DNA of 64,000 nucleotides from a virus (IMGVR_UViG_3300034062_005355), one strand, 5' to 3'. Counted from the first letter of the stretch, positions 21,107 to 62,418 are shown. The notes: a model not told the origin generated them from the letters alone. Numbers and translations are program-made.

Positions 21107-22219
21107 TTAAAGTTTTTTAAATTCAGGTTTAAGTATATTCCATATTATTTTGTCGTATGGTTTTCCATCCCACATTGCAAACATAACACTACGAAGGTTT
21201 GGATGTGAGTGTTTCATTACATGCTCCGCATACTCTTTCTTTGTTGGTTCCACTTCTCTATCAGTATATTTTCCATAACGGAAATAATAGTGAGATTTAC
21301 CACATTGTTCCGAGATTTGATAGTGAGCATACTTTAATTCATTCGCATAATTCTTTATTTTTTGATAAAATTCATCAGGAACATCTTTTAATAATTCATT
21401 TACATTATCACCATTTAACAACATTTCCCATATACCAGTTGTGGATATGTTTGTCATTATTCTATGGAGACGTATGTATTCTTCACCTTTGATTTTCATT
21501 CGGTCTCCATTTGAGAAACGAACAACAAATCCTTCGGCATTATTATCGACTAAAGATTTCAATGATGTATAATCTTTAATTCCATCATATCTTTTAACGA
21601 TATTTATACCAATGTTATTCAATAGATTTTTGAACCTAATATCATCACTATTATCTGAATGTATATTAACCTCATAACCACTTTTGGTGTGTATCATTCC
21701 AAGTAAAATCAAATCCTCAAAATCGTATCTACACACTATTCTGTTCTCAGAATAAATTATCTCAAAGAGATAAGTGTAGCCAGGATGTAATTTATTATAG
21801 TCATATTTTTCAAGTAATTTACGACCTTTTATAGATTGTTCTGATGTAAATGAACCGCGAGTTGAAAGTATCCATTCACCTTCGTAGTTGAATAGTACCC
21901 CCAAAGAACCATCCATTTTCTCATGAACCTCAAACTCTGTAGTTGGAGTGTGTTTATCCTCCTCGATATTAAAGAATTTTTTAAATGGTCTTGCAACCAC
22001 ATTACCATCATTATCTGTTACCAATCCACGACATTGGGTGGTTATATCATCCCAAAGGTTAGAATATTGCGTATTAGGAGTATAATTCCATATGGTTAAT
22101 GGTAATGTCGGATGTGTTTGTTTATATAACAAACCATCCTCATAATACTGATTCAATGTTAGTAAAAATTCATTCATAACACAAAGATAGTAATTTTTTT
22201 GAAATAAAAAAATCCCCAC
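21107..22219 (-). CDS. rnlA: T4 Rnl1-like RNA ligase
   Basis: IWNY...CRGLV...VARPFKKFFN...EKMDGSL...YLFEII...EGFV...MKIK; true start probably MNEFLLT (22179). Confidence 0.85.
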   Translation of the reverse strand: MGIFLFQKNYYLCVMNEFLLTLNQYYEDGLLYKQTHPTLPLTIWNYTPNTQYSNLWDDITTQCRGLVTDNDGNVVARPFKKFFNIEEDKHTPTTEFEVHEKMDGSLGVLFNYEGEWILSTRGSFTSEQSIKGRKLLEKYDYNKLHPGYTYLFEIIYSENRIVCRYDFEDLILLGMIHTKSGYEVNIHSDNSDDIRFKNLLNNIGINIVKRYDGIKDYTSLKSLVDNNAEGFVVRFSNGDRMKIKGEEYIRLHRIMTNISTTGIWEMLLNGDNVNELLKDVPDEFYQKIKNYANELKYAHYQISEQCGKSHYYFRYGKYTDREVEPTKKEYAEHVMKHSHPNLRSVMFAMWDGKPYDKIIWNILKPEFKKL

Positions 22220-22474: not shown

Positions 22475-22873
22475 TTATTTTATTTTTATTTCGAATCTAT
22501 CATTCATTTGTTGGAGTTTTTCATCTGGTACTCCGTGTTGATTCACTCCACCATGTCGGTTTTCCACAATAATACTGAAAACCTGATATTCCCACTCTTT
22601 CGCCATATCCATATATGGTTTCATTTCCCATTCTTGGGTGAATGTGTTTGATACAATAATTGTTTCAAAGTCGTTAAAATTCATCCAATGTTCAACAACA
22701 TCCTGACACCAGTTATGGGCATCTTTTATTTTTGAACCATCAAATTTATATTCACCATCTTTTACGAAAAACATATCCGATTCAATATGTCCTGTTGATT
22801 CATTTGATATTGATTTGGCAAATGTTGATTTTCCTGATCCTGGTAATCCTCTCAATAAGATTAATTTTTTCAT
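22475..22873 (-). CDS. polynucleotide kinase-like P-loop kinase (stand-alone kinase domain)
   Basis: LILLRGLPGSGKST...IIVSNTF...HGVP..KLQQM; co-oriented with the RNA ligase. Confidence 0.8.
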   Translation of the reverse strand: MKKLILLRGLPGSGKSTFAKSISNESTGHIESDMFFVKDGEYKFDGSKIKDAHNWCQDVVEHWMNFNDFETIIVSNTFTQEWEMKPYMDMAKEWEYQVFSIIVENRHGGVNQHGVPDEKLQQMNDRFEIKIK

Positions 22874-29433: not shown

Positions 29434-30111
29434 CTAATTACCCTTCTTTTTTGTTACAATCTCATCAATTAATCCGTAATCAAGAGTTTCTTGTGACGAG
29501 AACCATAAATCTCTGTCAGCGTCAATTTTTATTTGATCTGATGACTTTCCACAATATTCTCCAAGTAAATTAAAGATGGTATCGTTAATTTTAGTCCATT
29601 CTTCAAAATTTACTTTTGCATCTGCGTAAGTACCTTGAAACCCTGACGATGATTGGTGTATCATAGTTCTTGAAAAGTTAAGTGAGCTTCTCTTACCTTT
29701 TGTTCCTGCGCCTAACAATACAGCTCCCATAGATGCACACATACCAACATTAACTGTTCTAACATCGCATGTAATGTAATTCATTACATCAATCATACTT
29801 AATCCCGATTTTATACTCCCACCACCACTATCCAAATGAAGTGTAATGTCTAACTTATCTGTATTATCCAAAAACATAAGCTGTGCTTGAACAACAGTGG
29901 ACATTTTATCATTTACAGGTCCTGCGGCCCACAATATACGGTCACGAAGCAACCTCGAAAAAATATCCATTTGAGTTACTCTCATCTCTCTTTCTTCCAA
30001 AATATATGGAGTCATTGAAGATTCGATTTGTTGTGTAAAGTAATCCAAGTGTGATGATGGTTTACCTAAATGTTTTGTGTAATACGATTGAAATTCTTGT
30101 CCGTAATTCAT
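29434..30111 (-). CDS. clpP: ATP-dependent Clp protease proteolytic subunit
   Basis: MDIFSRLLRDRI...QAQLMFLD...SGGGS...GMCASMGAVLL...MIHQ...DRDLW. Confidence 0.95.
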   Translation of the reverse strand: MNYGQEFQSYYTKHLGKPSSHLDYFTQQIESSMTPYILEEREMRVTQMDIFSRLLRDRILWAAGPVNDKMSTVVQAQLMFLDNTDKLDITLHLDSGGGSIKSGLSMIDVMNYITCDVRTVNVGMCASMGAVLLGAGTKGKRSSLNFSRTMIHQSSSGFQGTYADAKVNFEEWTKINDTIFNLLGEYCGKSSDQIKIDADRDLWFSSQETLDYGLIDEIVTKKKGN

Positions 30112-30495: not shown

Positions 30496-30984
30496 TTAAT
30501 AAACAAAGGATTGTTGGTAATCATTCCACACTTTATTTAATAATCCATTTTCATTTAATAATGATGGGACGTATGGTTTTACCTTCATTATCATTTTTGC
30601 TTCTTCAGGAGTTTTATCCCCCTTTTTAAGATTACATTTAAAACAACATGTAACTAAATTGGTCCATTCATTGCGTCCGCCTCTTGATTTAGGTATAACA
30701 TGGTCCAAAGTTAATTGTTTTTTTGAACCGCAATATACGCATTCGTGATTGTCTCTTTTATAAATTCTTGTTCTATTAACTCTAATATTCCTTGTGTTAT
30801 ACTTAATGTAACTTAATAGTCTTATAATTAAAGGTCTAACATAGGTGTTATAACCTGCTGTAATAGGGCATTCATCAGATTTTATAATCTCAGCCTTACC
30901 TTTATCTACAAGTACAAACCCCCTCCTTGTTGAAGTTATATTCAATGGGGTAAAATCATAATTCAGTACTAATACTCCGTTCAT
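30496..30984 (-). CDS. HNH endonuclease
   Basis: RDNHECVYCG...LTLDHVIPKSRGG...WTNLVTCCFKCNLKKG. Confidence 0.9.
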   Translation of the reverse strand: MNGVLVLNYDFTPLNITSTRRGFVLVDKGKAEIIKSDECPITAGYNTYVRPLIIRLLSYIKYNTRNIRVNRTRIYKRDNHECVYCGSKKQLTLDHVIPKSRGGRNEWTNLVTCCFKCNLKKGDKTPEEAKMIMKVKPYVPSLLNENGLLNKVWNDYQQSFVY

Positions 30985-34225: not shown

Positions 34226-34633
34226 ATGAAAAAAATATATCTAGATGATGTTAGAACACCTGTGGACCCAAGTTGGGTGGTTGTTAGAAATTACGAGCAA
34301 TTTGTAGATAAAATTAATGAAATTGGTTTAGAGAATATTGAATTGATTTCATTAGATCATGACTTGGGTGATAGTGCCATGGTAGAATGGTATAATAATG
34401 TTTATCACAATTATGAATTGAATTATGATAACATCACCGAAAAAACTGGAATGGATTGTACCAAATGGTTAGTGGAACAATGGATGGATGGTAAACCAGT
34501 TGTAGATGTTGTTATTCATTCCGCAAATGCTATTGGTAGTGGTAATATGATGGGTTATATTAACAATTACAGACACATTAATAGATTACCACAAAATTGT
34601 GTTAGAGTTCAAATTGATCACACAGTTTACTAA
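34226..34633 (+). CDS. cyclic-phosphate-processing receiver-like domain protein
   Basis: KIYLDDVRTP...ISLDHDLG...TGMDCTKWL...IHSAN. Confidence 0.65.
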   Translation: MKKIYLDDVRTPVDPSWVVVRNYEQFVDKINEIGLENIELISLDHDLGDSAMVEWYNNVYHNYELNYDNITEKTGMDCTKWLVEQWMDGKPVVDVVIHSANAIGSGNMMGYINNYRHINRLPQNCVRVQIDHTVY

Positions 34634-37043: not shown

Positions 37044-37724
37044 ATGCCAAGAAAACAACACAAATATCATTACATTTATAAGACAACAAATATTATAAAT
37101 GGAAAATTTTACATTGGGATGCACTCAACCAGTAATTTAGAAGACGGTTATATGGGTAGTGGTGAAAGAATAACAAGAAGTTTAAAAAAATATGGTAAAG
37201 AAAATTTTAAAATTGAGATTTTAGAAATGTTACCAAATAGAGATTTATTAAAAAAAAGAGAGAAAGAAATTGTAAACCAAACATTATTAGAAGATAAATT
37301 ATGTATAAATTTAGTTTATGGTGGGGGTGGAGGTTTTATAAGTCCTGAAGGTGTTAAAAAAGGTAGAAAAACAACTGATAAAATATTACAAGAAAGATAT
37401 GGTGATAATTTTTTAAGTGTGATTTTCAAAAATTATTATAAAACGGTGACACCTGAAAAAAGAAAAATACAACTTGAAAAAATAAAACAAAGTAAGATTG
37501 ATTCTGGTTTTGATTTTGGTGGTACTTTTAGAGGAAAAACCCACAAAGATGAAACAAAAAAAATAATTGGTGAAAAAAATGCAATACATCAAAAAGGTGA
37601 AAAAAATTCACAATTTGGTACTTGTTGGATAACAAATGGAAAAGAAACTAAAAAAATTAAAAAAATTGACTTATATTTGTATCCTGAATGGGAATTAGGT
37701 AGAACTATAAAAAAGACGATATAA
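37044..37724 (+). CDS. GIY-YIG homing endonuclease (Seg-like, NUMOD3-type C-terminus)
   Basis: YIYKTTNIINGKFYIGMH...YMGSG; FRGKTHKDETKKII; sits inside the tRNA cluster. Confidence 0.85.
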   Translation: MPRKQHKYHYIYKTTNIINGKFYIGMHSTSNLEDGYMGSGERITRSLKKYGKENFKIEILEMLPNRDLLKKREKEIVNQTLLEDKLCINLVYGGGGGFISPEGVKKGRKTTDKILQERYGDNFLSVIFKNYYKTVTPEKRKIQLEKIKQSKIDSGFDFGGTFRGKTHKDETKKIIGEKNAIHQKGEKNSQFGTCWITNGKETKKIKKIDLYLYPEWELGRTIKKTI

Positions 37725-39587: not shown

Positions 39588-39672
39588 GCCTGGGTGGTGT
39601 AACGGTAGCCACGCTAGACTTAAAATCTAGTGGACATAAACGTCCGTGCGGGTTCAAGTCCCGCCTCAGGTA
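39588..39672 (+). tRNA. tRNA-Leu(TAA)
   Basis: GCCTGGG/CTCAGGT-A; CTAGA-CTTAAAA-TCTAG; long variable arm. Confidence 0.93.
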
Positions 39673-40396: not shown

Positions 40397-40694
40397 CCGT
40401 AAAGTCGGGGAGTAGGTTTTTATGTTGGTTGGTACCTACTCCCCCAGACAAAAAGAAATTGATAATGGTTTTCTCCATTCAACGGATGTCGACAATCCAG
40501 AATGGAATCAGAATTCATCACCCTTTGCTGAGGCCTCATTAAAACTCAGGAAGCAATTAAGATTGGGACGAGACGGGTATCCCAACATTATCAACAATAT
40601 TGTGTTGTTCCTGTGAGATAGGAATGAAATAGTCGGACGTATTTTAAATGTAATACTGTTTGCACAACACAGAGGACTTCTCAACCTCAAATTT

Positions 40695-40767
40695 GGTGTG
40701 ATAGCTCAGTAGGTAGAGCAGTAGACTGAAAATCTACGTGCCGGTGGTTCGATCCCACCTCTCACCA
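40695..40767 (+). tRNA. tRNA-Phe(GAA)
   Basis: GTAGA-CTGAAAA-TCTAC; T arm GGTGG/CCACC. Confidence 0.92.
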
Positions 40768-40843
40768 CGGAGTCCCGAAATAACGGGAAACCCCCACTCC
40801 CACATGGCAGCCAGTCCGTTAACCTGGTGAAGTGGGGTAAAAT

Positions 40844-40974
40844 GGTCAGGTGGCGGAATTGGTAGACGCTATGTGGTAAAGCTAACCACAAACAAAGCTG
40901 TGACGGACTCAAAAGTACAATGAGTTGAAATAGAAGATTACGCACGGTTATAGGTTCGAATCCTGTCCTGATTA
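40844..40974 (+). ncRNA. tRNA-like element 1 (131 nt)
   Basis: GGTCAGG-TGGCGGAATTGGTAGACGC...ATAGG-TTCGAAT-CCTGT-CCTGATT-A; no canonical anticodon arm. Confidence 0.8.
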
Positions 40975-40983
40975 CAAAAAAGA

Positions 40984-41015
40984 TTTGGTGAATTAAAATA
41001 TTAAACATATCTTTG
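40984..41015 (+). promoter_or_regulatory. Bacteroidota sigma70-type promoter (cassette repeated at 41606-41637 and 44394-44425)
   Basis: TTTG-N20-TATCTTTG. Confidence 0.75.
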
Positions 41016-41034
41016 TATTGTTAAAAAAATAGTC

Positions 41035-41343
41035 ATGGAAGATAAAAAATCATTAAATAAAATCAAAAGAGAAACGCAATTGTTTTGGCTTGGTGAAAAT
41101 CGCCTTATCAAATGGTCGGATATTAAGCATTTACAATTAGAAGATGATGATGTAATCAGGTCATCATGGGAAGAGGACGATGATGACGGACGCGGGCTCT
41201 ATGTCGGAGAAATCACTAGAATGGTTGAAGAAACTGATGAACAATATCAAAAACGTCTATCTAATAATGAACTACATAATAAATGGGAAAAAGAAAGACG
41301 TTACGAAAGTTATTTAAAACTTAAAAAAGAGTTTGAAGAATAA
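41035..41343 (+). CDS. hypothetical protein within the tRNA-like array
   Basis: 102-aa ORF after a promoter. Confidence 0.6.
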   Translation: MEDKKSLNKIKRETQLFWLGENRLIKWSDIKHLQLEDDDVIRSSWEEDDDDGRGLYVGEITRMVEETDEQYQKRLSNNELHNKWEKERRYESYLKLKKEFEE

Positions 41344-41348
41344 AATAT

Positions 41349-41439
41349 AGTCAGGTGGCGAAATTGGTAGACGCAGTCCTCGGGATAATGTCAAGAGGGT
41401 CGCGCCCTCAATTTACAGGTTCGAATCCTGTCCTGGCTA
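41349..41439 (+). ncRNA. tRNA-like element 2 (91 nt)
   Basis: AGTCAGG...ACAGGTTCGAATCCTGT-CCTGGCT-A; interior hairpin GAGGG/CCCTC. Confidence 0.8.
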
Positions 41440-41504
41440 CAAAGGCAGATTGTTACTAATTCATAGCACCTGAAGAAAGTGGGAATGTCATAGAATTAGA
41501 ATTT

Positions 41505-41594
41505 AGTCAGGTTGCGGAATGTTAATAATTAACTTAGTGCAAGAATTAAGCTAACTAATAGTGGCGAGGAACCACAACTAAGTTAATTATTAAC
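41505..41594 (+). ncRNA. tRNA-like element 3 (5' part only) fused to an 18-bp perfect hairpin
   Basis: AGTCAGGTTGCGGAAT, then GTTAATAATTAACTTAGT (41521-41538) / ACTAAGTTAATTATTAAC (41577-41594); no T arm. Confidence 0.6.
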
Positions 41595-41651
41595 CATAAA
41601 AAAAATTTGGCGGATTAAAATATTATACATATCTTTGTATTGTTATAAAAT

Positions 41652-41737
41652 AGTCAGGTGGCGCAAATGGATGACGGTCAAATAGGAGATAATATCAATA
41701 GGATGAAAGTATACAGGTTCGAATCCTGTCCTGACTA
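41652..41737 (+). ncRNA. tRNA-like element 4 (86 nt)
   Basis: conserved ends; interior identical to element 6. Confidence 0.8.
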
Positions 41738-41749
41738 CTAAAATTAAAT

Positions 41750-41917
41750 GTTATGGAAACGATTAATATTACAACAGAAGAACTAAAAAAATTAGTTGAA
41801 ACAGCAATTCAATTTGGGATCGATAGTCCTGAATTAGTCCCAAACCAAAAAGGAAGAGAAAAAATTGCAAATTGGATGGTAGATAACACCATTAAAGATA
41901 TAAAAGGACAAAGGTAA
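41750..41917 (+). CDS. small hypothetical protein (~55 aa, not in the ORF track)
   Basis: METINITTEELKKLVETAIQFGIDSPELVPNQKGREKIANWMVDNTIKDIKGQR*, between elements 4 and 5; end coordinate approximate. Confidence 0.45.
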   Translation, partial: VMETINITTEELKKLVETAIQFGIDSPELVPNQKGREKIANWMVDNTIKDIKGQR

Positions 41918-41923
41918 TAAAAT

Positions 41924-42032
41924 AGTCAGGTGGCGGAATTGGTCACCAAAGTAAGCCGTCTCCAAGCTTTGTGTAAAAGAGATGAATGCCTAATTTGAAA
42001 ACTACTTACAGGTTCGAATCCTGTCCTGACTA
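41924..42032 (+). ncRNA. tRNA-like element 5 (109 nt)
   Basis: AGTCAGGTGGCGGAATTGG...ACAGGTTCGAATCCTGTCCTGACT-A. Confidence 0.8.
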
Positions 42033-42184
42033 CAAAAATATGAAATTGAAAGGATAAATTACGTAATAGTCCAATCAATCAAGGGTTAACATCTCAAATG
42101 GTATGGATTTAGCGGTCCAAAGAGTATGGCAGGGGTTAACCATCAAAAACTTGGGAACGACCGATATGCCTTCATATTTCTTAT

Positions 42185-42270
42185 GGTCAGGTGGCGCAAA
42201 TGGATGACGGTCAAATAGGAGATAATATCAATAGGATGAAAGTATACAGGTTCGAATCCTGTCCTGACTA
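42185..42270 (+). ncRNA. tRNA-like element 6 (86 nt)
   Basis: copy of element 4, differing at the first base. Confidence 0.8.
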
Positions 42271-42297
42271 CAAAATTAATAATTTAAATAAACAAAT

Positions 42298-42636
42298 ATG
42301 TTACCAAATTATCATACAAAATTAAATTTTGACGATGTCATAATCGTATCAACTAAAGAATTTCCGGGGATATTTTTTCCGGCTAAGATTGAACAAATCG
42401 TTGAATGTAATTTTATGGATAAAAATTCCATTAAAGTGGGTCGACCTGTTGGTGTTTACTATCAATATAATCTTAGAACCGTTGATTACGAAGATAACCC
42501 ATTTATTAATTTTCCTAATGTAGACACTAATTTCCTTACTTGGGACGAACTAAATAGTTTTGACACTTTGGATAGGTGGGTTGAAAATATGGGTTATTTT
42601 ATGAAAGGTGTGATTAAAATAGAAAAGATTGGATAG
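42298..42636 (+). CDS. hypothetical protein within the array
   Basis: 112-aa ORF. Confidence 0.55.
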   Translation: MLPNYHTKLNFDDVIIVSTKEFPGIFFPAKIEQIVECNFMDKNSIKVGRPVGVYYQYNLRTVDYEDNPFINFPNVDTNFLTWDELNSFDTLDRWVENMGYFMKGVIKIEKIG

Positions 42637-42685
42637 AATGAAGTTGGATATTTAGAAAATATATTCTCAAAAATCAAATAAAAAT

Positions 42686-42798
42686 AGTCGGGTGGCGGAA
42701 TTGGTTAGACGCTAAGTGTGGGTTCGTAACCCTTGACCGTCTGGTAACAGATACACAGAGTAACACTCGTACAGGTTCGAATCCTGTCCTGACTACCA
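42686..42798 (+). ncRNA. tRNA-like element 7 (encodes ACCA)
   Basis: AGTCGGG/CCTGACT-ACCA; interior hairpins GGGTT/AACCC, TCTG/CAGA, GAGT/ACTC. Confidence 0.8.
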
Positions 42799-42987
42799 AG
42801 TTAACCACACTAAGACTAGAAACGTGGTGACGGATCGGAAAGACGACAAAACTACCACGATGCTTCCCGTAAGATCAGCACTATTTTCAGTGGTGATTTC
42901 TCCACGTAAACGAATAGCCCAAGGCATAAGTTATGGTGGATTACCAAACCTATCCTTAATGGACGCATTAAGTGAAGTTTGGGACAT

Positions 42988-43092
42988 AGTCAGGTGGCGG
43001 AATTGGTTAGACGCTAAACCATTAGAGATAAAATGTAGATTCTCAGTAAGGTAATATACTACATTATACAGGTTCGATTCCTGTCCTGACTA
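42988..43092 (+). ncRNA. tRNA-like element 8 (105 nt)
   Basis: conserved ends; interior stem AATGTAG/CTACATT. Confidence 0.8.
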
Positions 43093-43109
43093 CAAAATAA
43101 ATAAAAATT

Positions 43110-43367
43110 ATGGAAAGATTAGTGCTTGATTATACTCATTGTTCTGAACCAGAATGTTGGGAACATAATATTCCTTTTGAATATGAATCAAAAGAGAAAT
43201 TTATATTTGATGTGATTGAATATCCAATGTTACTTAATTCTCTAATTGAATGTGTATATGAATGGATGTTGGATCCGGCTTATGAACATAAGATAGAGTT
43301 ATTAGAAAATATTGATCAATATATTTTTACATTAGATGAATGGTTTGAAAAAAATAAAAAAATATGA
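43110..43367 (+). CDS. hypothetical protein within the array
   Basis: 85-aa ORF. Confidence 0.55.
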   Translation: MERLVLDYTHCSEPECWEHNIPFEYESKEKFIFDVIEYPMLLNSLIECVYEWMLDPAYEHKIELLENIDQYIFTLDEWFEKNKKI

Positions 43368-43594
43368 AAGAAATACTTGAAAATAAAGATGTTGGTGATT
43401 ACGTACATGTTGATGGTTATACATCAATGGCACAACAAAACTTCCGTAAAACATCTATAATTGGAGTTGATTATAAATTTGATCCTGATACAGGTGATAA
43501 ATTTAAAATTCTTCAGATTGATAATGGTGAATGGTTTGATAGCCGGAATGGTGGTTGTTACTCAAATGAAAACTCAATGTATTATATTGAATAG
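43364..43594 (+). CDS. hypothetical protein within the array
   Basis: 76-aa ORF. Confidence 0.55.
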   Translation: MKEILENKDVGDYVHVDGYTSMAQQNFRKTSIIGVDYKFDPDTGDKFKILQIDNGEWFDSRNGGCYSNENSMYYIE

Positions 43595-43600
43595 TTATTT

Positions 43601-43742
43601 AGTCAGGTGGCGGAATATAGACGCAGAAGTTAGAAGAGAGGGATTATCAATGTTGGTTAGTGGATTAATTACCTTGTCTAATGGATTAAATAACACACAC
43701 CAACTATTATGTGTTATACAGGGTTGTATCCTGTCCTGACTA
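43601..43742 (+). ncRNA. tRNA-like element 9 (142 nt; altered T loop)
   Basis: AGTCAGG...ACAGG-GTTGTAT-CCTGT-CCTGACT-A; ATAACAC/GTGTTAT hairpin. Confidence 0.75.
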
Positions 43743-43800
43743 CACTAATTAAGCTAGTTTATGAACAGCCTTTGAGGTGAGATGCTCTCATTAGAATGGA

Positions 43801-43870
43801 AGTCAGGTAACTTAACTGGTAAAGGGGGTTGCGATAGTTTCCGTTACAGGTTCGAATCCTGTCCTGACTA
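43801..43870 (+). ncRNA. tRNA-like element 10 (70 nt, shortest)
   Basis: AGTCAGG...ACAGGTTCGAATCCTGTCCTGACT-A; D arm degenerate. Confidence 0.75.
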
Positions 43871-44000
43871 CAAAATTAACTGAGGAACCGAATAAGAAAG
43901 TAGGTAATAAGGTGTGGGATAGTTACGAATAACCACGATGGAAATTGGGATTATAACTCAAGCGTAAATAGGTTATAATTAGTAAGTTAATTTTTTAAAT

Positions 44001-44104
44001 AGTCAGGTGAGCGGAATGGCTATCGCACTGCAAAAACAGTTCTTATTTCGACATAAGATAACCAAGTGAAAGGCACTATACAGGTTCGAATCCTGTCCTG
44101 ACTG
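44001..44104 (+). ncRNA. tRNA-like element 11 (104 nt; G discriminator)
   Basis: conserved ends; interior ACTG/CAGT, TCTTAT/ATAAGA, GTG/CAC. Confidence 0.8.
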
Positions 44105-44165
44105 CAAAATTTTTTTTGTTATTTAATATATTTTTTGTATTTTTGTATCCTAATCAAAAGACAAT

Positions 44166-44387
44166 ATGAAAAGAAAGACTATAAATGTGGATTTAGTGAA
44201 AGAAAAGGTTAATAAGTTATTATCTAATCCAAACATTATAATGGAGGAGAAATTGGGTGTAATAACAATGATTGAGTATGTATTACATGAAACCAACAAT
44301 TATAATGGTTTTATGTATTTAACACTTAATAATGGTGAGGCTCCAAAACTTGGTACTGATGAATGGGTAAGTAGGAAATATTTTTAA
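44166..44387 (+). CDS. hypothetical protein within the array
   Basis: 73-aa ORF. Confidence 0.55.
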   Translation: MKRKTINVDLVKEKVNKLLSNPNIIMEEKLGVITMIEYVLHETNNYNGFMYLTLNNGEAPKLGTDEWVSRKYF

Positions 44388-44445
44388 AAAAGATTTGGTG
44401 GATTAAAATATTATACATATCTTTGTATTCCAATAATAAAAAAAG

Positions 44446-44793
44446 ATGGAAAAATTAAGTAAAAAATATAAGACCTATTCTATAACAATGTACCGTAGAG
44501 GTATGGAGTTGGAAGTGATATGTGTAACCACAAGTAAGAAAAAATTTGCCGCGTTATGTGATATGCCCATCTCGAATGTTAATAACCATGGTTACTCATA
44601 TGATTTACGTTATCCAATCTGTAATGAAAATCCAGATAAGTTATACGCAAAACCAGGAATGGGTGGTGAAATAATGTATATCACAGAAAGAGGTGTGATA
44701 AAACCGTTGGAGGACTACATTAAGTTAATTGTCGAACATAGGGAAAAATATAAATCGTATAAAGATTATTTAGAAAAAACAAATCAAAGATAA
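44446..44793 (+). CDS. hypothetical protein within the array
   Basis: 115-aa ORF after the repeated promoter cassette. Confidence 0.6.
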   Translation: MEKLSKKYKTYSITMYRRGMELEVICVTTSKKKFAALCDMPISNVNNHGYSYDLRYPICNENPDKLYAKPGMGGEIMYITERGVIKPLEDYIKLIVEHREKYKSYKDYLEKTNQR

Positions 44794-44800
44794 AACAAAT

Positions 44801-44890
44801 AGTCAGGTGGTTTAAAGTTGGTTCGACTCCAAGATAGGATATGGTATCGTTGCGATTGGAAATTTACAGGTTCGAATCCTGTCCTGACTA
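44801..44890 (+). ncRNA. tRNA-like element 12 (90 nt; extra internal T-loop hairpin)
   Basis: conserved ends; internal TTGG-TTCGACT-CCAA. Confidence 0.78.
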
Positions 44891-45020
44891 CTGACACGCA
44901 CGGCAGCCGAAATGTAAAAGCGCTCAATGATTAGGCAATGCGAACGAACACACGGTCTACCTCACAGTGCGTAGGTAAGCTTCAAGGATCGTTGACAGCT
45001 CGGAATAGACGAGCAAATTT

Positions 45021-45162
45021 AGTCAGGTGGCGGAATTGGTTAGACTCGCTAATATAGGTATCGAAAGATAGACGATTCTACTCCGCAGGGTCATATTAGT
45101 CTATCCTAAAGTGATATGAGTAGACGCAATAGGAGTTACAGGTTCGAATCCTGTCCTGACTA
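45021..45162 (+). ncRNA. tRNA-like element 13 (142 nt; potential pseudoknot interior)
   Basis: conserved ends; CTAATAT/ATATTAG crossed by CTACTC/GAGTAG. Confidence 0.8.
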
Positions 45163-45251
45163 CAAAAGTGTTGAGTTCAAATCCCAGTAGGGAAGTTTAT
45201 AAAGTATCTAAATAATAATTTAATTTAAAAACAAAAAAATAACTTACGAAG

Positions 45252-45500
45252 ATGAAAAGTTCAAGTAGTATCATTAATAGACAAAAAGAAATAGATAAGT
45301 TAAGAACAGAGTTGGAAACAATTTTAGCTAAAACTAAACACTTATCTAAAGGTGAAATAGGAACAAAAGGATATAATAAGGTTATAGACGAATTGAAAAA
45401 TAAAATATTAGAACTTGAACAGAGAACTAAATTAGATAGGATTAAAATTGGTGAAGGTGTGGATGATTTAAGTGATAATAGATTTAAAAGATATAAATGA
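45252..45500 (+). CDS. hypothetical coiled-coil protein
   Basis: 82-aa ORF. Confidence 0.55.
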   Translation: MKSSSSIINRQKEIDKLRTELETILAKTKHLSKGEIGTKGYNKVIDELKNKILELEQRTKLDRIKIGEGVDDLSDNRFKRYK

Positions 45501-45573
45501 TATTACTTCTACCGTTTTGCAGCTACCAGAAGGGCGGGATTTAGAACGATAAACTTTAAATAAAAATAAAATT

Positions 45574-45756
45574 ATGGAAAATAAATGTTATCAAGCAACT
45601 AATGAAGATTTACGTGAATCAGATTTAGAACATTACGAAAAATTATCAACAGAATGTCATCATTGGTCGAGTGGTATTCCAAGAGCAATAAACTTTTACT
45701 ATGATTATAAGAGTATGAGTATATGGGAAAAGATAAAATTAGCATTTAAGAAATAG
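45574..45756 (+). CDS. hypothetical protein
   Basis: 60-aa ORF; its TAG stop overlaps the first bases of element 14. Confidence 0.5.
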   Translation: MENKCYQATNEDLRESDLEHYEKLSTECHHWSSGIPRAINFYYDYKSMSIWEKIKLAFKK

Positions 45757-45868
45757 TCAGGTGGCAGAATGGTAGATGCATGATGATAAAGTAGGGTTCG
45801 GATGTACTCGGAGGAAATTGATTCAGTTAGGTGTACAACTAATACAGGTTCGAATCCTGTCCTGATTA
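45755..45868 (+). ncRNA. tRNA-like element 14 (114 nt)
   Basis: AGTCAGGTGGCAGAATGGTAGATGC...ACAGGTTCGAATCCTGT-CCTGATT-A. Confidence 0.8.
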
Positions 45869-45914
45869 CAAATCTCAGGAGTAATTAATCTGAGACTGAG
45901 TGATTCGAAACACT

Positions 45915-46026
45915 CGATTGATTATGGTGTAATGGCGCACAACACCCCCCGCTGAAGTTCGAGTCTTCAGATTAGGTACGGTAACCAGGGGAGTAAGATT
46001 AAGGTTCGAATCCTTTTTAATCGGCA
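45915..46026 (+). ncRNA. unrelated tRNA-like RNA with two T-loop hairpins
   Basis: CGATTGA/TTAATCG acceptor-like stem; GGTGTAATGG D-like segment; CTGAAG-TTCGAGT-CTTCAG and AAGG-TTCGAAT-CCTT. Confidence 0.5.
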
Positions 46027-46191
46027 ATTGGTAGTAAAATGCGTAGGTTGATAAGCGTGGAGAGACGTGACGCAAGGGTACACACTAAGGATAGGTAGTA
46101 ATACCCAACTCTCTAATGGTGTGTGAAGCTGGGCCCAAACTTATGGTCGCTAGGCGGGATTCTTGATAAAGTCAACCACTACCTTTTACAT

Positions 46192-46267
46192 GTTGGCTAT
46201 AGCTCAGTTGGTTTAGAGTGCTTGATTGTGGTTCAAGAGGTCACGGGTTCGACTCCCGTTAGTCACC
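46192..46267 (+). tRNA. tRNA-His(GTG)
   Basis: G-1:C73; CTTGA-TTGTGGT-TCAAG. Confidence 0.9.
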
Positions 46268-46422
46268 CAAATAGGTTGGGATCCCTAGTGGTAGCGGCGT
46301 TAATCATGATAATCAAGCCACAAGTATCTAGTAAGAAGTGACAGATGGGTTCGTCACGACCTAAAAATATTTTTTTGTTAATATGGTATTTTTATGTATA
46401 TTTGTATTCCAAACAATAAACA

Positions 46423-58630: not shown

Positions 58631-60679
58631 TTATCGTCCTTTCTTTTGGACCACCACATTTTCATCCACTACTTTGATGAGATAAGTTTTACCCTCAATC
58701 ATCTTACCTGTTAGAACTTCTTCAGACAATAGGTCTTCAACCTTATCTTGAATTGCTCTTTTCAATGGACGAGCTCCGTATAATTCATCATAACCAATCT
58801 TAGCAAGATACTCAACCAATGAATCATCGTATGTGATGTTGTATTTCATGTCTACAAGACGAACTACCAACTTCTTTAATTCAATGTCTGTAATCTTTTT
58901 AATATCCTCTTGAGATAAAGAATTAAATACGATTGTATCATCAATACGATTTAAGAACTCAGGAGAAAAGAAATTCTTCATTTCTTTCATTAACATTTGT
59001 TTCTTAGCTTCTTCATTACTATATGCGTTTGAAGAGAAACCAATACCTGTTCCAAATTCTTGTAGTTTCTTAACCCCTAAATTTGATGTCAAGATAATCA
59101 AGGTATTCTTGAAGTTAATCTTACGACCTAAACTATCTGTCACATGACCATCATCCAAGATTTGAAGTAAAACAGTGAATACATCTTTGTGTGCTTTTTC
59201 CACCTCGTCAAACAAGATAACTGAATATGGTTTGTTTTTAACTTTTTCAGTTAACAATCCACCTTCTTCATAACCAACATAACCCGGAGGAGCTCCCACT
59301 AATTTAGAAATACTATGTTTCTCTTGGTATTCTGACATATCCACACGGATAAGTGAATCTTCAGAACCAAACATTTCCTTAGCCAATTGTTTTGCCAAGT
59401 ATGTTTTACCAACACCAGTAGAACCCAAGAACACGAATGAGCCAATTGGACGGTTAGGGTCTTTAATGCCCAAACGGTTTCTTTTAATAGATTTTGCAAT
59501 CTTAACAACAGCGTTGTCCTGACCAATAACTTTACCAATTAAGTTTTTGTCTAAATCTAACAATGATTTTGTGTCATCAACGCTCATTTTGTTTACAGGA
59601 ATTTTGGTCATGTTTGAAACAACATCGTATACGTGTTCCAACAAGATGGTTTGTTTTTCCTTCGCCAATTGTTCTTCAAACTTAATTTTTTCTTGCTCAA
59701 GTTTTATTAACAATTTCTTCTCCTTGTCACGAAGTTCTGCTGCTTGTTCGTAGTTTTGTTTTTTAACCACATCAATTTTTTGTTGTTTGATATCTGCAGC
59801 CTTCTTTTTAAGGTCTTCAATAACATCAGGAACTTTTAAGTCAGTTTGCATTCTTGCCCCAACCTCATCCAAGATGTCAAACGCTTTGTCAGGAAATTCA
59901 CGGTCAGTGATATAACGGTCTGCCAACTTAACACAAGTTTCAATAACCTCATCACTGTAATTTACCTTGTGGAAGTTTTCGTATTTGTCACGAACATTCT
60001 TAAGGATTTGAATTGTTTCATCAACTGATGATGGATCAACAATTACTTTTTGGAATCTACGTTCTAACGCTCCGTCTTTTTCAATGTTCTTACGGAATTC
60101 ATCCAATGTGGTTGCTCCAATACATTGAAGTTCACCACGAGAAAGTGCTGGTTTAAAGATGTTTGAACCATCCATTGAACCTGAAGAATTACCTGAACCA
60201 ACCAAAGTGTGAATCTCGTCAATAAACACAATGATGTTTGGATTCGCCTGAAGTTCTTCAATAATCACTTTCATTCTTTCTTCGAATTGTCCACGGTATT
60301 TGGTACCAGCAACAACTGAAGTTAGGTCAAGGTTAACAATACGTTTGTCAATTAAGTTACGAGGACATTCCCCATTAACAATTTTAATTGCCAAACCTTC
60401 AACAAGAGCAGTTTTACCACAACCAGGTTCACCAATAATAATTGGGTTATTTTTCTTTCTACGAGATAAAATCTGAGCAATTCTCAAAATCTCTCGGTCA
60501 CGACCAATAACAGGGTCAAGTTTACCCGCCTCAGCTAATTTATTTAGGTCTCTACTGAAGTTGTCTAATACAGGTGTGTTTGAATCTGCAGATGATTTTG
60601 ATTTTTTACTCATCATTTTGTCGTCATCGTCCATTAAGTCGTTCATATATTTTATAGATTTTTTACAAAGTAACAACAA
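58631..60679 (-). CDS. clpC: Clp ATPase, ClpC/ClpB type, lacking the N-terminal Clp-repeat domain
   Basis: two AAA+ modules (GEPGCGKT, GSTGVGKT); UVR-like middle domain NYEQAAELRDKE; starts almost directly at LDNFSRDL. Confidence 0.92.
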   Translation of the reverse strand: MLLLCKKSIKYMNDLMDDDDKMMSKKSKSSADSNTPVLDNFSRDLNKLAEAGKLDPVIGRDREILRIAQILSRRKKNNPIIIGEPGCGKTALVEGLAIKIVNGECPRNLIDKRIVNLDLTSVVAGTKYRGQFEERMKVIIEELQANPNIIVFIDEIHTLVGSGNSSGSMDGSNIFKPALSRGELQCIGATTLDEFRKNIEKDGALERRFQKVIVDPSSVDETIQILKNVRDKYENFHKVNYSDEVIETCVKLADRYITDREFPDKAFDILDEVGARMQTDLKVPDVIEDLKKKAADIKQQKIDVVKKQNYEQAAELRDKEKKLLIKLEQEKIKFEEQLAKEKQTILLEHVYDVVSNMTKIPVNKMSVDDTKSLLDLDKNLIGKVIGQDNAVVKIAKSIKRNRLGIKDPNRPIGSFVFLGSTGVGKTYLAKQLAKEMFGSEDSLIRVDMSEYQEKHSISKLVGAPPGYVGYEEGGLLTEKVKNKPYSVILFDEVEKAHKDVFTVLLQILDDGHVTDSLGRKINFKNTLIILTSNLGVKKLQEFGTGIGFSSNAYSNEEAKKQMLMKEMKNFFSPEFLNRIDDTIVFNSLSQEDIKKITDIELKKLVVRLVDMKYNITYDDSLVEYLAKIGYDELYGARPLKRAIQDKVEDLLSEEVLTGKMIEGKTYLIKVVDENVVVQKKGR

Positions 60680-61692: not shown

Positions 61693-62418
61693 ATGAATAG
61701 TTTTCAAAAAATCCTTGATAGTTTTTCTATTAAGGACACATTAAACCCAAAAATTTGGGAATCCCCAAAAGAACCTAACAAAGCGGTTATGATACCAAAA
61801 GTTAGAAAAGCTCTTACGCGTATTGCGGAAGAGTTTATTGATTATTTGGGTGATGATGTTTTTGTGGACGATATTCATCTCACAGGTTCATTGGCAAATT
61901 TTAATTGGTCAGAATTTTCAGATTTTGATTTACATGTAATTGTTGATTTACAACAATACGAAAACCAAAGTGAATTGTATAAAGAATTGTTTAATTTAAA
62001 AAAACAAGTTTTCAACGACAAACATAATATTAAGATTTTTGGTTATGATGTTGAGTTATATGCTCAAGATGCAGAAGAACCACATTATAGTTCGGGAGTT
62101 TATTCTGTTATGAATGATGAATGGATTAGTAAACCAAAAAAATTCAAGAATGAAATTGATAAAGGTGTGCTTGAAAAAAAGATAAAAACTTGGACAGAAA
62201 AGATTGATACTGCAATTGACGAGGGCAAAGATTTAGAAACAATTAAGACTAAACTCAAAGATTATAGAAAGGCTGGGTTAGAAAAAGATGGTGAATTATC
62301 TTATGAAAATTTAGTCTTTAAGTTTTTAAGAAGGTCAGGTCACATAGAAAAATTATTTGATACCGTGAATAAAGAGACAGATAAAGAGTTGTCTGTTGAA
62401 AGAACAATTCAAGAATAA
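61693..62418 (+). CDS. Pol-beta superfamily nucleotidyltransferase
   Basis: LTGSLANFNWSEFSDFDLH (GS...DxD) and third acidic residue in YDVELY. Confidence 0.75.
   Translation: MNSFQKILDSFSIKDTLNPKIWESPKEPNKAVMIPKVRKALTRIAEEFIDYLGDDVFVDDIHLTGSLANFNWSEFSDFDLHVIVDLQQYENQSELYKELFNLKKQVFNDKHNIKIFGYDVELYAQDAEEPHYSSGVYSVMNDEWISKPKKFKNEIDKGVLEKKIKTWTEKIDTAIDEGKDLETIKTKLKDYRKAGLEKDGELSYENLVFKFLRRSGHIEKLFDTVNKETDKELSVERTIQE

Follow-up and report, generated by a model that had tools for sequence, protein, structure and literature searches.

The subject of this report is an array of 13 tRNA-like elements found in a stretch of viral DNA of 64,000 nucleotides (IMGVR_UViG_3300034062_005355; this whole stretch is called the window below), which is part of a large uncultured lake phage. 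The elements keep the frame of a leucine tRNA without an anticodon arm, this frame is constrained in a strand-specific manner, and they are not debris of tRNA genes. Their interiors are replaced at fixed loci, between constant ends, by recombination between phages, and their leader and trailer processing signals are common to the elements and the real tRNAs of the phage. The family is phage-borne and restricted to uncultured phages, and what is new is this exchange of interiors at fixed loci, occurring in an RNA family that is absent from Rfam and from the literature searched. In the interpretation that we favor, with a probability of roughly 0.6, the elements encode processed, non-decoding 'shell' RNAs derived from tRNA-Leu, which would be exchanged as cassettes and act in trans as tRNA look-alikes; the trans-acting function, whether as decoy or as carrier of cargo, is the least secure part of this interpretation.

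All 13 elements were re-found, on the + strand, at the positions given by an initial annotation of the window (40844-45868; Table 1), and their lengths again range from 70 to 142 nt. The 24-mer ACAGGTTCGAATCCTGTCCTGACT is indeed exact in eight of them, and with up to three mismatches gives 13 matches against 0 expected; its copies lie on the + strand only, between 40950 and 45867. Its counterpart at the other end, the 5' half AGTCAGGTGGCGGAAT, is matched 11 times, where 0.1 matches are expected, and has a further, orphan copy at 41505. The 7-bp acceptor stem and the T arm described as common to all 13 were seen both in pairing and in unconstrained minimum free energy (MFE) folds, which form the acceptor stem in 13/13 elements and the exact T-arm pairing in 11/13; the region between the arms folds into 0-3 unrelated hairpins per element. 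All six acceptor-stem substitutions within the window are compatible with G.U pairing. The Leu-type D arm, attributed at first, as Leu/Ser-like, to most of the elements, is kept in about 8/13 window copies. With a covariance model derived from these 13, the elements obtain 52-86 bits and real tRNAs at most 35 bits, which sets the family apart from the latter; no further copy in the window is detected by the model. These 13 copies form the largest array among the records examined.

The elements lie outside the decoding set of the phage. ARAGORN detects 24 ordinary tRNAs in the window, including the two canonical tRNA-Leu genes (at 39588 and 39856) already noticed in the initial annotation, and calls only one of the 13 elements, 41349-41440, as Ser(gga) with an unpaired stem. 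The Rfam tRNA model (RF00005) can align the elements only if the anticodon arm is passed over, with scores of 27-42 bits versus 48-72 bits for the real tRNAs of the phage; the gathering threshold of 29 bits is reached by 11/13 elements (29-42 bits, local alignment), and two fall below it. A UUCRANY-type T loop and a discriminator base accompany the 7-bp acceptor stem in 13/13 elements, and the features of tRNA-Leu that are present comprise the Leu-type D arm, A73, U8-A14, G18G19 and A15-U48. By ARAGORN, Infernal and MFE folds, no credible anticodon arm exists in any of the 13, as first described: the elements lack the canonical 5-bp stem and 7-nt loop with U33 and purine 37, as well as the leucine anticodon and the oriented long variable arm of a bacterial class II tRNA-Leu.

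The exact 24-mer ACAGGTTCGAATCCTGTCCTGACT occurs in at least 119 IMG/VR contigs. Among 185,579 species genomes it was found in 14 contigs, all 14 from metagenome-assembled genomes (MAGs), binned mostly to Chitinophagaceae, Sediminibacterium and other Bacteroidota, and in no isolate genome; the region and a single element, compared with GenBank phages by megablast or blastn, matched nothing there. Large phage genomes contain 1-7 copies, always on one strand, and one contig, L010, has about ten copies within 3.5 kb (L-numbers designate the phage contigs used as comparison loci). ARAGORN calls only one of the MAG copies, as a 73-nt tRNA-Ala(cgc), and 31/144 of the IMG/VR copies, with scattered and implausible anticodons on bad stems. 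An origin from host tRNAs was rejected, since the 24-mer is absent from isolates and the MAG copies have no convincing anticodon arm.

Selection on the RNA fold was assessed over 197 distinct members, gathered by a nearest-5'-half finder that is blind to base pairing. At the 12 pairs of the acceptor and T stems, departures from the consensus comprise 43 G.U, 4 A.C, 9 compensatory Watson-Crick pairs and 10 other mismatches. As an A.C would be a G.U on the opposite strand, this asymmetry shows that the constraint acts on the RNA read from the strand of the element. In the D stem, C11-G24 has become U11-A24 in 17 cases, and G13.A22 is kept in the family, as in tRNA-Leu. The tertiary core is kept as well: U8 is found in 99% and A14 in 94% of members, G18G19 and the T loop are kept across the family, and at the Levitt pair 15-48 A15-U48 occurs 165 times, while 8/9 members with G15 pair it with C48. 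The discriminator is A73 in 93% of members. Compared with 264 real tRNAs of the same loci, the D arm matches tRNA-Leu only (16/28). The random decay of acceptor and T-arm pairing expected of pseudogene debris was looked for and is not seen. That the whole core is kept, beyond the needs of RNase P, favors a mature RNA that is recognized by tRNA-binding proteins.

The exchange of interiors emerges from the comparison of flanks. In 17 pairs of elements, the interiors are 79-97% identical and the flanks unrelated, as judged by blastn and tblastx, run with a positive control, over up to 3 kb on each side; the homology of these elements extends from +1 to the discriminator plus C (position 74). In a group of seven contigs (L046, L064, L070, L089, L096, L099 and L106), the flanks are 84-96% identical, mostly about 90% or more, only the upstream flank being common to the group in the case of L064, and between them lie five interiors (41-84 nt) that are unrelated to one another and come with D arms of their own; the interior of L106 has a 91% identical copy in L035, in an unrelated context. 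Likewise, L010 and L029 have flanks 99-100% identical and different interiors, that of L029 being 91% identical to the interior of L022. The unusual G72 stays with the L010/L029 locus, which places the crossover inside the constant 3' end, and on the 5' side of exchanged interiors only about 10-26 nt of identity are available. Because the constant ends bracket an interior that is replaced by recombination, the array amounts to a set of exchangeable cassettes.

The interiors themselves form only 17 small similarity clusters, and an exact search of IMG/VR with two interior 24-mers gave nothing. Folding is slightly more stable than that of shuffled sequences (mean z of -0.62 over 184 interiors), and GNRA-capped hairpins number 49 against 23.7 +/- 4.7 expected. 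In the alignments of two interior families, each change at a paired position retains the pair; there is one compensatory interior pair, together with double changes in the D and T stems.

Regarding processing, the base at position -1 is U in 82% and position 74 is C in 97% of members, followed by an A-rich run. The N73-C trailer that had been likened to that of real tRNAs is present in 13/13 elements and in 24/24 real tRNAs of the phage, the trailer of the latter being mostly CAAA and most of them also having U at -1. The Bacteroidota promoter motif TTTG-N17-22-TAnnTTTG occurs 23 times in the window versus 5.9 +/- 2.6 expected (approximately fourfold). The copy that precedes element 3 (Table 1) has near-copies at 40984-41015 and 44394-44425, and further + strand motifs precede the open reading frames (ORFs) at 41035, 44166 and 44446. 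No intrinsic terminator is predicted on the + strand within the array, and the elements are located within operons. Selection on the fold, common processing signals and replacement of interiors together bear out the initial view of tRNA-mimic chassis with constant ends and swappable interiors, for which the initial annotation had proposed three possible roles, as decoys, as carriers of cargo or as punctuation.

We infer co-transcription, excision, CCA addition and accumulation of an L-shaped RNA, as well as a role in trans for the variable arm. In the proposed mechanism, the shells would be transcribed from the + strand by host-type promoters, within long transcripts that also contain spacer RNAs and small ORFs. 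Excision of the shells would fall to the same enzymes that process the phage's real tRNAs, RNase P cutting between U-1 and A+1 and 3' trimming taking place at A73-C74 before completion of CCA, and the same cuts would split the transcript into separate mRNAs and RNAs. The expected product is a stable L-shaped RNA with the acceptor stem, elbow and core tertiary pairs of tRNA-Leu, in which a copy-specific structured module would take the place of the anticodon arm. Once mature, the shells would most probably work in trans, resembling tRNAs but offering no anticodon loop to be cut, and would engage proteins recognizing the tRNA body or 3' end in the conflict between host and phage over tRNAs.

The gene content of the phage is consistent with such a decoy role. 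The window encodes a transfer-messenger RNA (tmRNA; 55164-55554 on the - strand, Rfam RF00023, 54.8 bits), ClpP (29434-30111) and a Clp ATPase with two AAA domains (58631-60646). It also encodes an RNA-repair gene set (Table 1) comprising an Rnl1-type RNA ligase, an AAA_33 kinase, a cREC cyclic-phosphate domain, a HAD_SAK_2 phosphatase and a weak NTP_transf_2 match, possibly an end-repair nucleotidyltransferase. RNA repair, tmRNA, nucleases and Clp genes indicate a phage heavily equipped for conflict over tRNAs and translation.

Several points weigh against the shell interpretation. We infer the transcription, mature ends, CCA addition and abundance of the shells from DNA, and the findings do not distinguish a trans-acting role from pure processing in cis. 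The near-invariance of the end sequences is partly a product of the member search by exact 24-mer. No motif is common to about 150 non-redundant interiors, including a tetraloop receptor and a Ro60-type motif, and the modest structure signal of the interiors could stem merely from selection against disturbing the frame. Moreover, neither in the window nor in 1.2 Mb of phage loci do the window interiors find complementary stretches beyond short chance-level matches, on which ground their reading as antisense or guide RNAs was rejected. Finally, clustering of ORFs around the 119 loci revealed no protein family co-occurring with the elements in more than 16 of them, the commonest neighbors being DUF932, terminase and T5orf172.

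The most novel interpretation, which we regard as credible, if doubtful, is a natural form of tRNA-scaffold display. The Leu frame would serve at once as a signal for expression and processing, as a chassis for stability and as a recombination arm, and the interiors would represent a community-wide pool of functional modules, such as protein-binding decoys or aptamers, exchanged under diversifying selection in conflicts with the host. If true, the elements would be the RNA-gene counterpart of integron cassettes.

A rival explanation, on balance unlikely, is that the elements are purely cis-acting punctuation, like the t-elements of plant mitochondria, which would recruit RNase P and 3' enzymes, the shells being by-products and the interiors filler. 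Early polycistronic transcripts would in this way give rise to monocistronic mRNAs with short A-rich leaders and to free spacer RNAs. The arrangement of ORFs speaks for it: stops lie 5-7 nt upstream of five elements, element 13 shares its first two bases with the TAG stop of ORF 45574-45756, and ORFs 41753, 42298 and 43110 start 15-27 nt past an element with no promoter of their own. Family-wide, a same-strand ORF stop lies within 10 nt of the element 5' end in 26% of cases, compared with 2% at random positions and 7% at real tRNAs, and the next ORF starts within 30 nt after the element in 28%; cuts at the shells would thus free mRNAs and spacer RNAs too. These abutting stops, together with an array devoid of terminators, support punctuation indirectly, and interiors with neither common motif nor detectable targets are also in its favor. 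However, RNase P substrates are generally known to need little beyond an acceptor/T-arm helix, whereas the elements keep a whole Leu-type D arm, U8-A14 and a covarying 15-48 pair. In addition, 7/13 elements have no preceding ORF, one has its own promoter and a leader of a few bases, and the interiors, which reach 130 nt and include GNRA caps and conserved stems, exceed the needs of filler.

We consider it improbable that the elements are selfish, gene-converting repeats of no benefit to the phage, which would spread and have their ends homogenized by recombination between phages and persist through being harmless. The occurrence of whole elements in unrelated contexts and the turnover of interiors in nearly identical genomes would fit this explanation, as would the variation in copy number, 13 versus 1-2 between relatives. 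In the closest relative, L121 (neighboring protein 84% identical, same tRNA order), the distance from tRNA-Phe to tRNA-His is 1.0 kb with one element and one variant element, compared with 5.4 kb, 13 elements and nine ORFs in the window; an ORF upstream of the element in L121 is found downstream of tRNA-His in the window. Sequencing depth in lake metagenomes is likewise in favor, as it is 10-20 times higher over the constant ends than over unique parts and flanks, with many other interiors attached to the same ends. On the other hand, target-site duplication does not exceed the shuffled control, ORF clustering of the 119 loci reveals no co-occurring recombinase or nuclease family, and strand-specific, RNA-level constraint on stems and a tertiary pair is unexpected for a DNA parasite. 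The array is also stable: at least 20 metagenome runs from lakes or freshwater, with dates from 2016 to 2024, contain the region, and long contig pieces from four of these runs show no differences, the 13-copy array being 100% identical from 2016 to 2024.

A further proposal, which we hold to be very improbable, makes the elements leucine-charged carriers without anticodons, acting as donors for a tRNA-dependent transferase, in tmRNA-like ribosome entry, or by titration of LeuRS and EF-Tu. For charging, bacterial LeuRS depends on A73 and on the U8-A14, G18-U55 and G19-C56 core and can dispense with the anticodon arm (PMC2377443), and the element family keeps the full published recognition set (A73, U8-A14, G18G19 with U55C56, A15-U48); the presence of tmRNA, ClpP and Clp ATPase genes points the same way. 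However, the scanned window ORFs include no gene for a transferase, an SmpB-like protein or LeuRS, the interiors have no conserved reading frame or motif, and the identity set may simply have been inherited from an ancestral tRNA-Leu. Decaying tRNA-Leu pseudogenes or intron-interrupted ordinary tRNAs, suggested by the Leu-type D arm and by a few members elsewhere with anticodon-like loops (L053, L007), are scarcely tenable given the maintained pairing (43 G.U versus 4 A.C, with compensatory changes), the scattered ARAGORN anticodons on bad stems, a frame that stays intact in hundreds of copies while the middles differ, and inserts whose removal leaves no anticodon arm, e.g., at 45021.

Two RNAs with anticodon-like loops both have the family acceptor stem: L053 12357-12443 has an Ile(gat) loop with U33 and A37, and L007 14065-14138 (- strand) a Lys(ctt) loop with G33. 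These RNAs may be links to a decoding ancestor.

Known classes of RNA and repeats were considered too. The elements are not intron-bearing tRNAs, because removal of the insert restores no anticodon arm and the insert of element 45021 lies in the D arm; no group I or other intron family in Rfam matches them. Identity with tmRNA was rejected, as the 3-70 pair is U-A in 196/197 members instead of G3.U70, and the only Rfam tmRNA match in the window is the gene mentioned above. A Y RNA or YrlA was rejected since no TROVE domain was found in the 50 window ORFs scanned and the interiors have no common motif. Finally, a miniature inverted-repeat or other transposon was rejected because the 7-nt inverted ends are the acceptor stem and because of the result on target-site duplication given above. 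With both gathering and permissive thresholds, Rfam returned only tRNA and tmRNA for the window.

Comparison with known systems helps to place the family. The species 1 and 2 RNAs of phage T4 (rnaC, rnaD) are small stable non-tRNA RNAs that are encoded among, and matured with, phage tRNA genes; they are single fixed genes, whereas the elements are multi-copy with constant tRNA ends and exchangeable interiors. Use of tRNA-like structures within longer transcripts as processing signals is known from t-elements, mascRNA (MALAT1) and the tRNA-miRNA units (TMERs) of murine gammaherpesvirus 68, which recruit RNase P or RNase Z and set the ends of neighboring RNAs. Unlike the elements, these usually have an acceptor and T arm or a loose cloverleaf only, with no hypervariable interior, and none is from a phage. 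In the promoter/stem-loop (PeSL) cassettes of hyperplastic regions in T4-type phages, as in integron cassettes, repeats serve as recombination points. Here as there, short repeats bracket small novel ORFs where close relatives differ sharply; in the elements, however, the repeat is an RNA gene under constraint, whose interior can be the unit of exchange, and the integrase and attC-type site of integron cassettes are absent. We know of no precedent for interior exchange at fixed sites as a mode of RNA-gene evolution.

A man-made parallel is the engineered tRNA scaffold of Ponchon and Dardel, in which an arbitrary structured RNA replaces the anticodon arm (PMC3753655) and the frame likewise gives RNase P/3' processing and nuclease protection. 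The engineered scaffold carries one insert per construct, whereas the elements are natural, Leu-type and arrayed, with inserts exchanged between phages and, unlike in the scaffold, also located in the D loop. Both tmRNA and YrlA (PMC4201824) place a tRNA-like acceptor/T-arm module on a large non-tRNA body and are phage-encoded; tmRNA, however, has the alanine identity pair G3.U70 and a tag reading frame, and YrlA ends in a Ro60-binding stem with a conserved Ro60 motif, none of which is found in the elements.

If the shells are expressed as we suppose, phages have long used the tRNA-frame carrier design taken up by RNA engineers in 2007. The family is abundant in lake viromes, and its absence from Rfam extends to cultured phages; as ARAGORN mislabels or misses its copies (31/144 called), phage tRNA counts are distorted. 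About 150 natural inserts are provided whose targets could be sought. The setting, in which element-bearing phages have full tRNA sets, tmRNA, RNA ligase with kinase and phosphoesterase, and Thg1, ties the family to the question of how phages answer defenses that target tRNAs.

Table 1. Positions of the elements and accompanying features (window coordinates unless a contig is named).
Feature	Position	Strand	Remarks
Element 1	40844-40974	+	131 nt; wobbles G1.U72, G2.U71; covariance model 69.9 bits
Element 2	41349-41439	+	91 nt; U3.G70; begins 5 nt past stop of ORF 41035-41343
Element 3	41652-41737	+	86 nt; own promoter directly upstream; interior identical to that of element 5
Element 4	41924-42032	+	109 nt; remodelled D arm; begins 6 nt past stop of ORF 41753-41917
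Element 5	42185-42270	+	86 nt; G1.U72; duplicate of element 3
Element 6	42686-42795	+	110 nt; G5.U68; 3 interior hairpins, 1 GNRA (GUAA)-capped
Element 7	42988-43092	+	105 nt; covariance model 85.5 bits
Element 8	43601-43742	+	142 nt; T loop altered; begins 6 nt past stop of ORF 43364-43594
Element 9	43801-43870	+	70 nt, shortest; class I-like D arm; no usable anticodon loop; relative in L012
Element 10	44001-44104	+	104 nt; G as discriminator
Element 11	44801-44890	+	90 nt; begins 7 nt past stop of ORF 44446-44793
Element 12	45021-45162	+	142 nt; insert within D arm; about 10 nt between D arm and T arm
Element 13	45755-45868	+	114 nt; compensatory D-stem pair A12-U23; G2.U71
Orphan 5' half	41505-41596	+	16 nt, then 18-bp perfect hairpin; no 3' half of its own
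tRNA-Phe	40695-40768	+	left boundary of hyperplastic interval
tRNA-His	46193-46268	+	right boundary of hyperplastic interval
Promoter motif TTTG..TAnnTTTG, Bacteroidota type	41606-41637	+	ends 14 nt before element 3
Nine interspersed small ORFs	41035-45756	+	54-115 aa; no informative Pfam or PHROG match
Small ORFs 1-5	41035-41343, 41753-41917, 42298-42636, 43110-43367, 43364-43594	+	
Small ORFs 6-9	44166-44387, 44446-44793, 45252-45500, 45574-45756	+	
Non-coding spacer module	44891-45020	+	directly 3' of element 11; conserved by elements in L040, L001, L079, L054
Non-coding spacer modules	45869-46192	+	element 13 to tRNA-His; 3' of tRNAs/elements in L010, L016, L032, L040, L121
RNA-repair gene set	21107-22177, 22475-22873, 34226-34633, 52719-53294, 61693-62418	-, -, +, -, +	
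L072 Thg1-type gene	L072 3300-4139	+	downstream of elements
L072 NAMPT-type gene	L072 4220-5710	+	downstream of elements

Several further observations concern the surroundings of the elements. A cassette of about 50 nt containing the Bacteroidota -33/-7 promoter motif occurs at 40976-41028, 41598-41650 and 44385-44429, the copies being 91-96% identical, and is found in L011 and L040 too; these may be mobile regulatory cassettes. The spacer at 40399-40694 is conserved beside tRNAs or elements in other phage contigs. Like the spacers at 44891-45020 and 45869-46192, it is non-coding and GC-richer and lies directly 3' of tRNAs or elements; the three recur in unrelated phage contigs, where their relative position is unchanged and identity is 72-87%, and the last of them contains two T-arm-like hairpins; all three look like further RNA modules. 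The spacer upstream of the orphan 5' half at 41505 recurs in L072, where it is followed by an element variant without a T arm.

A GIY-YIG endonuclease gene (37044-37724, +) lies within the tRNA region, with an HNH endonuclease gene (30496-30984, -) nearby, and either enzyme could drive gene conversion in this region. In L072, genes for a Thg1-type 3'-5' polymerase (tRNA 5'-end repair) and a NAMPT-type NAD salvage enzyme stand directly downstream of two elements. We also would like to mention that L033 has a tmRNA as well, and that a GOLLD RNA (RF02032, about 307 bits) is located approximately 1 kb from a family member both in this lake-phage contig (4476-4887, -) and in another, L112 (1001-1406, -).

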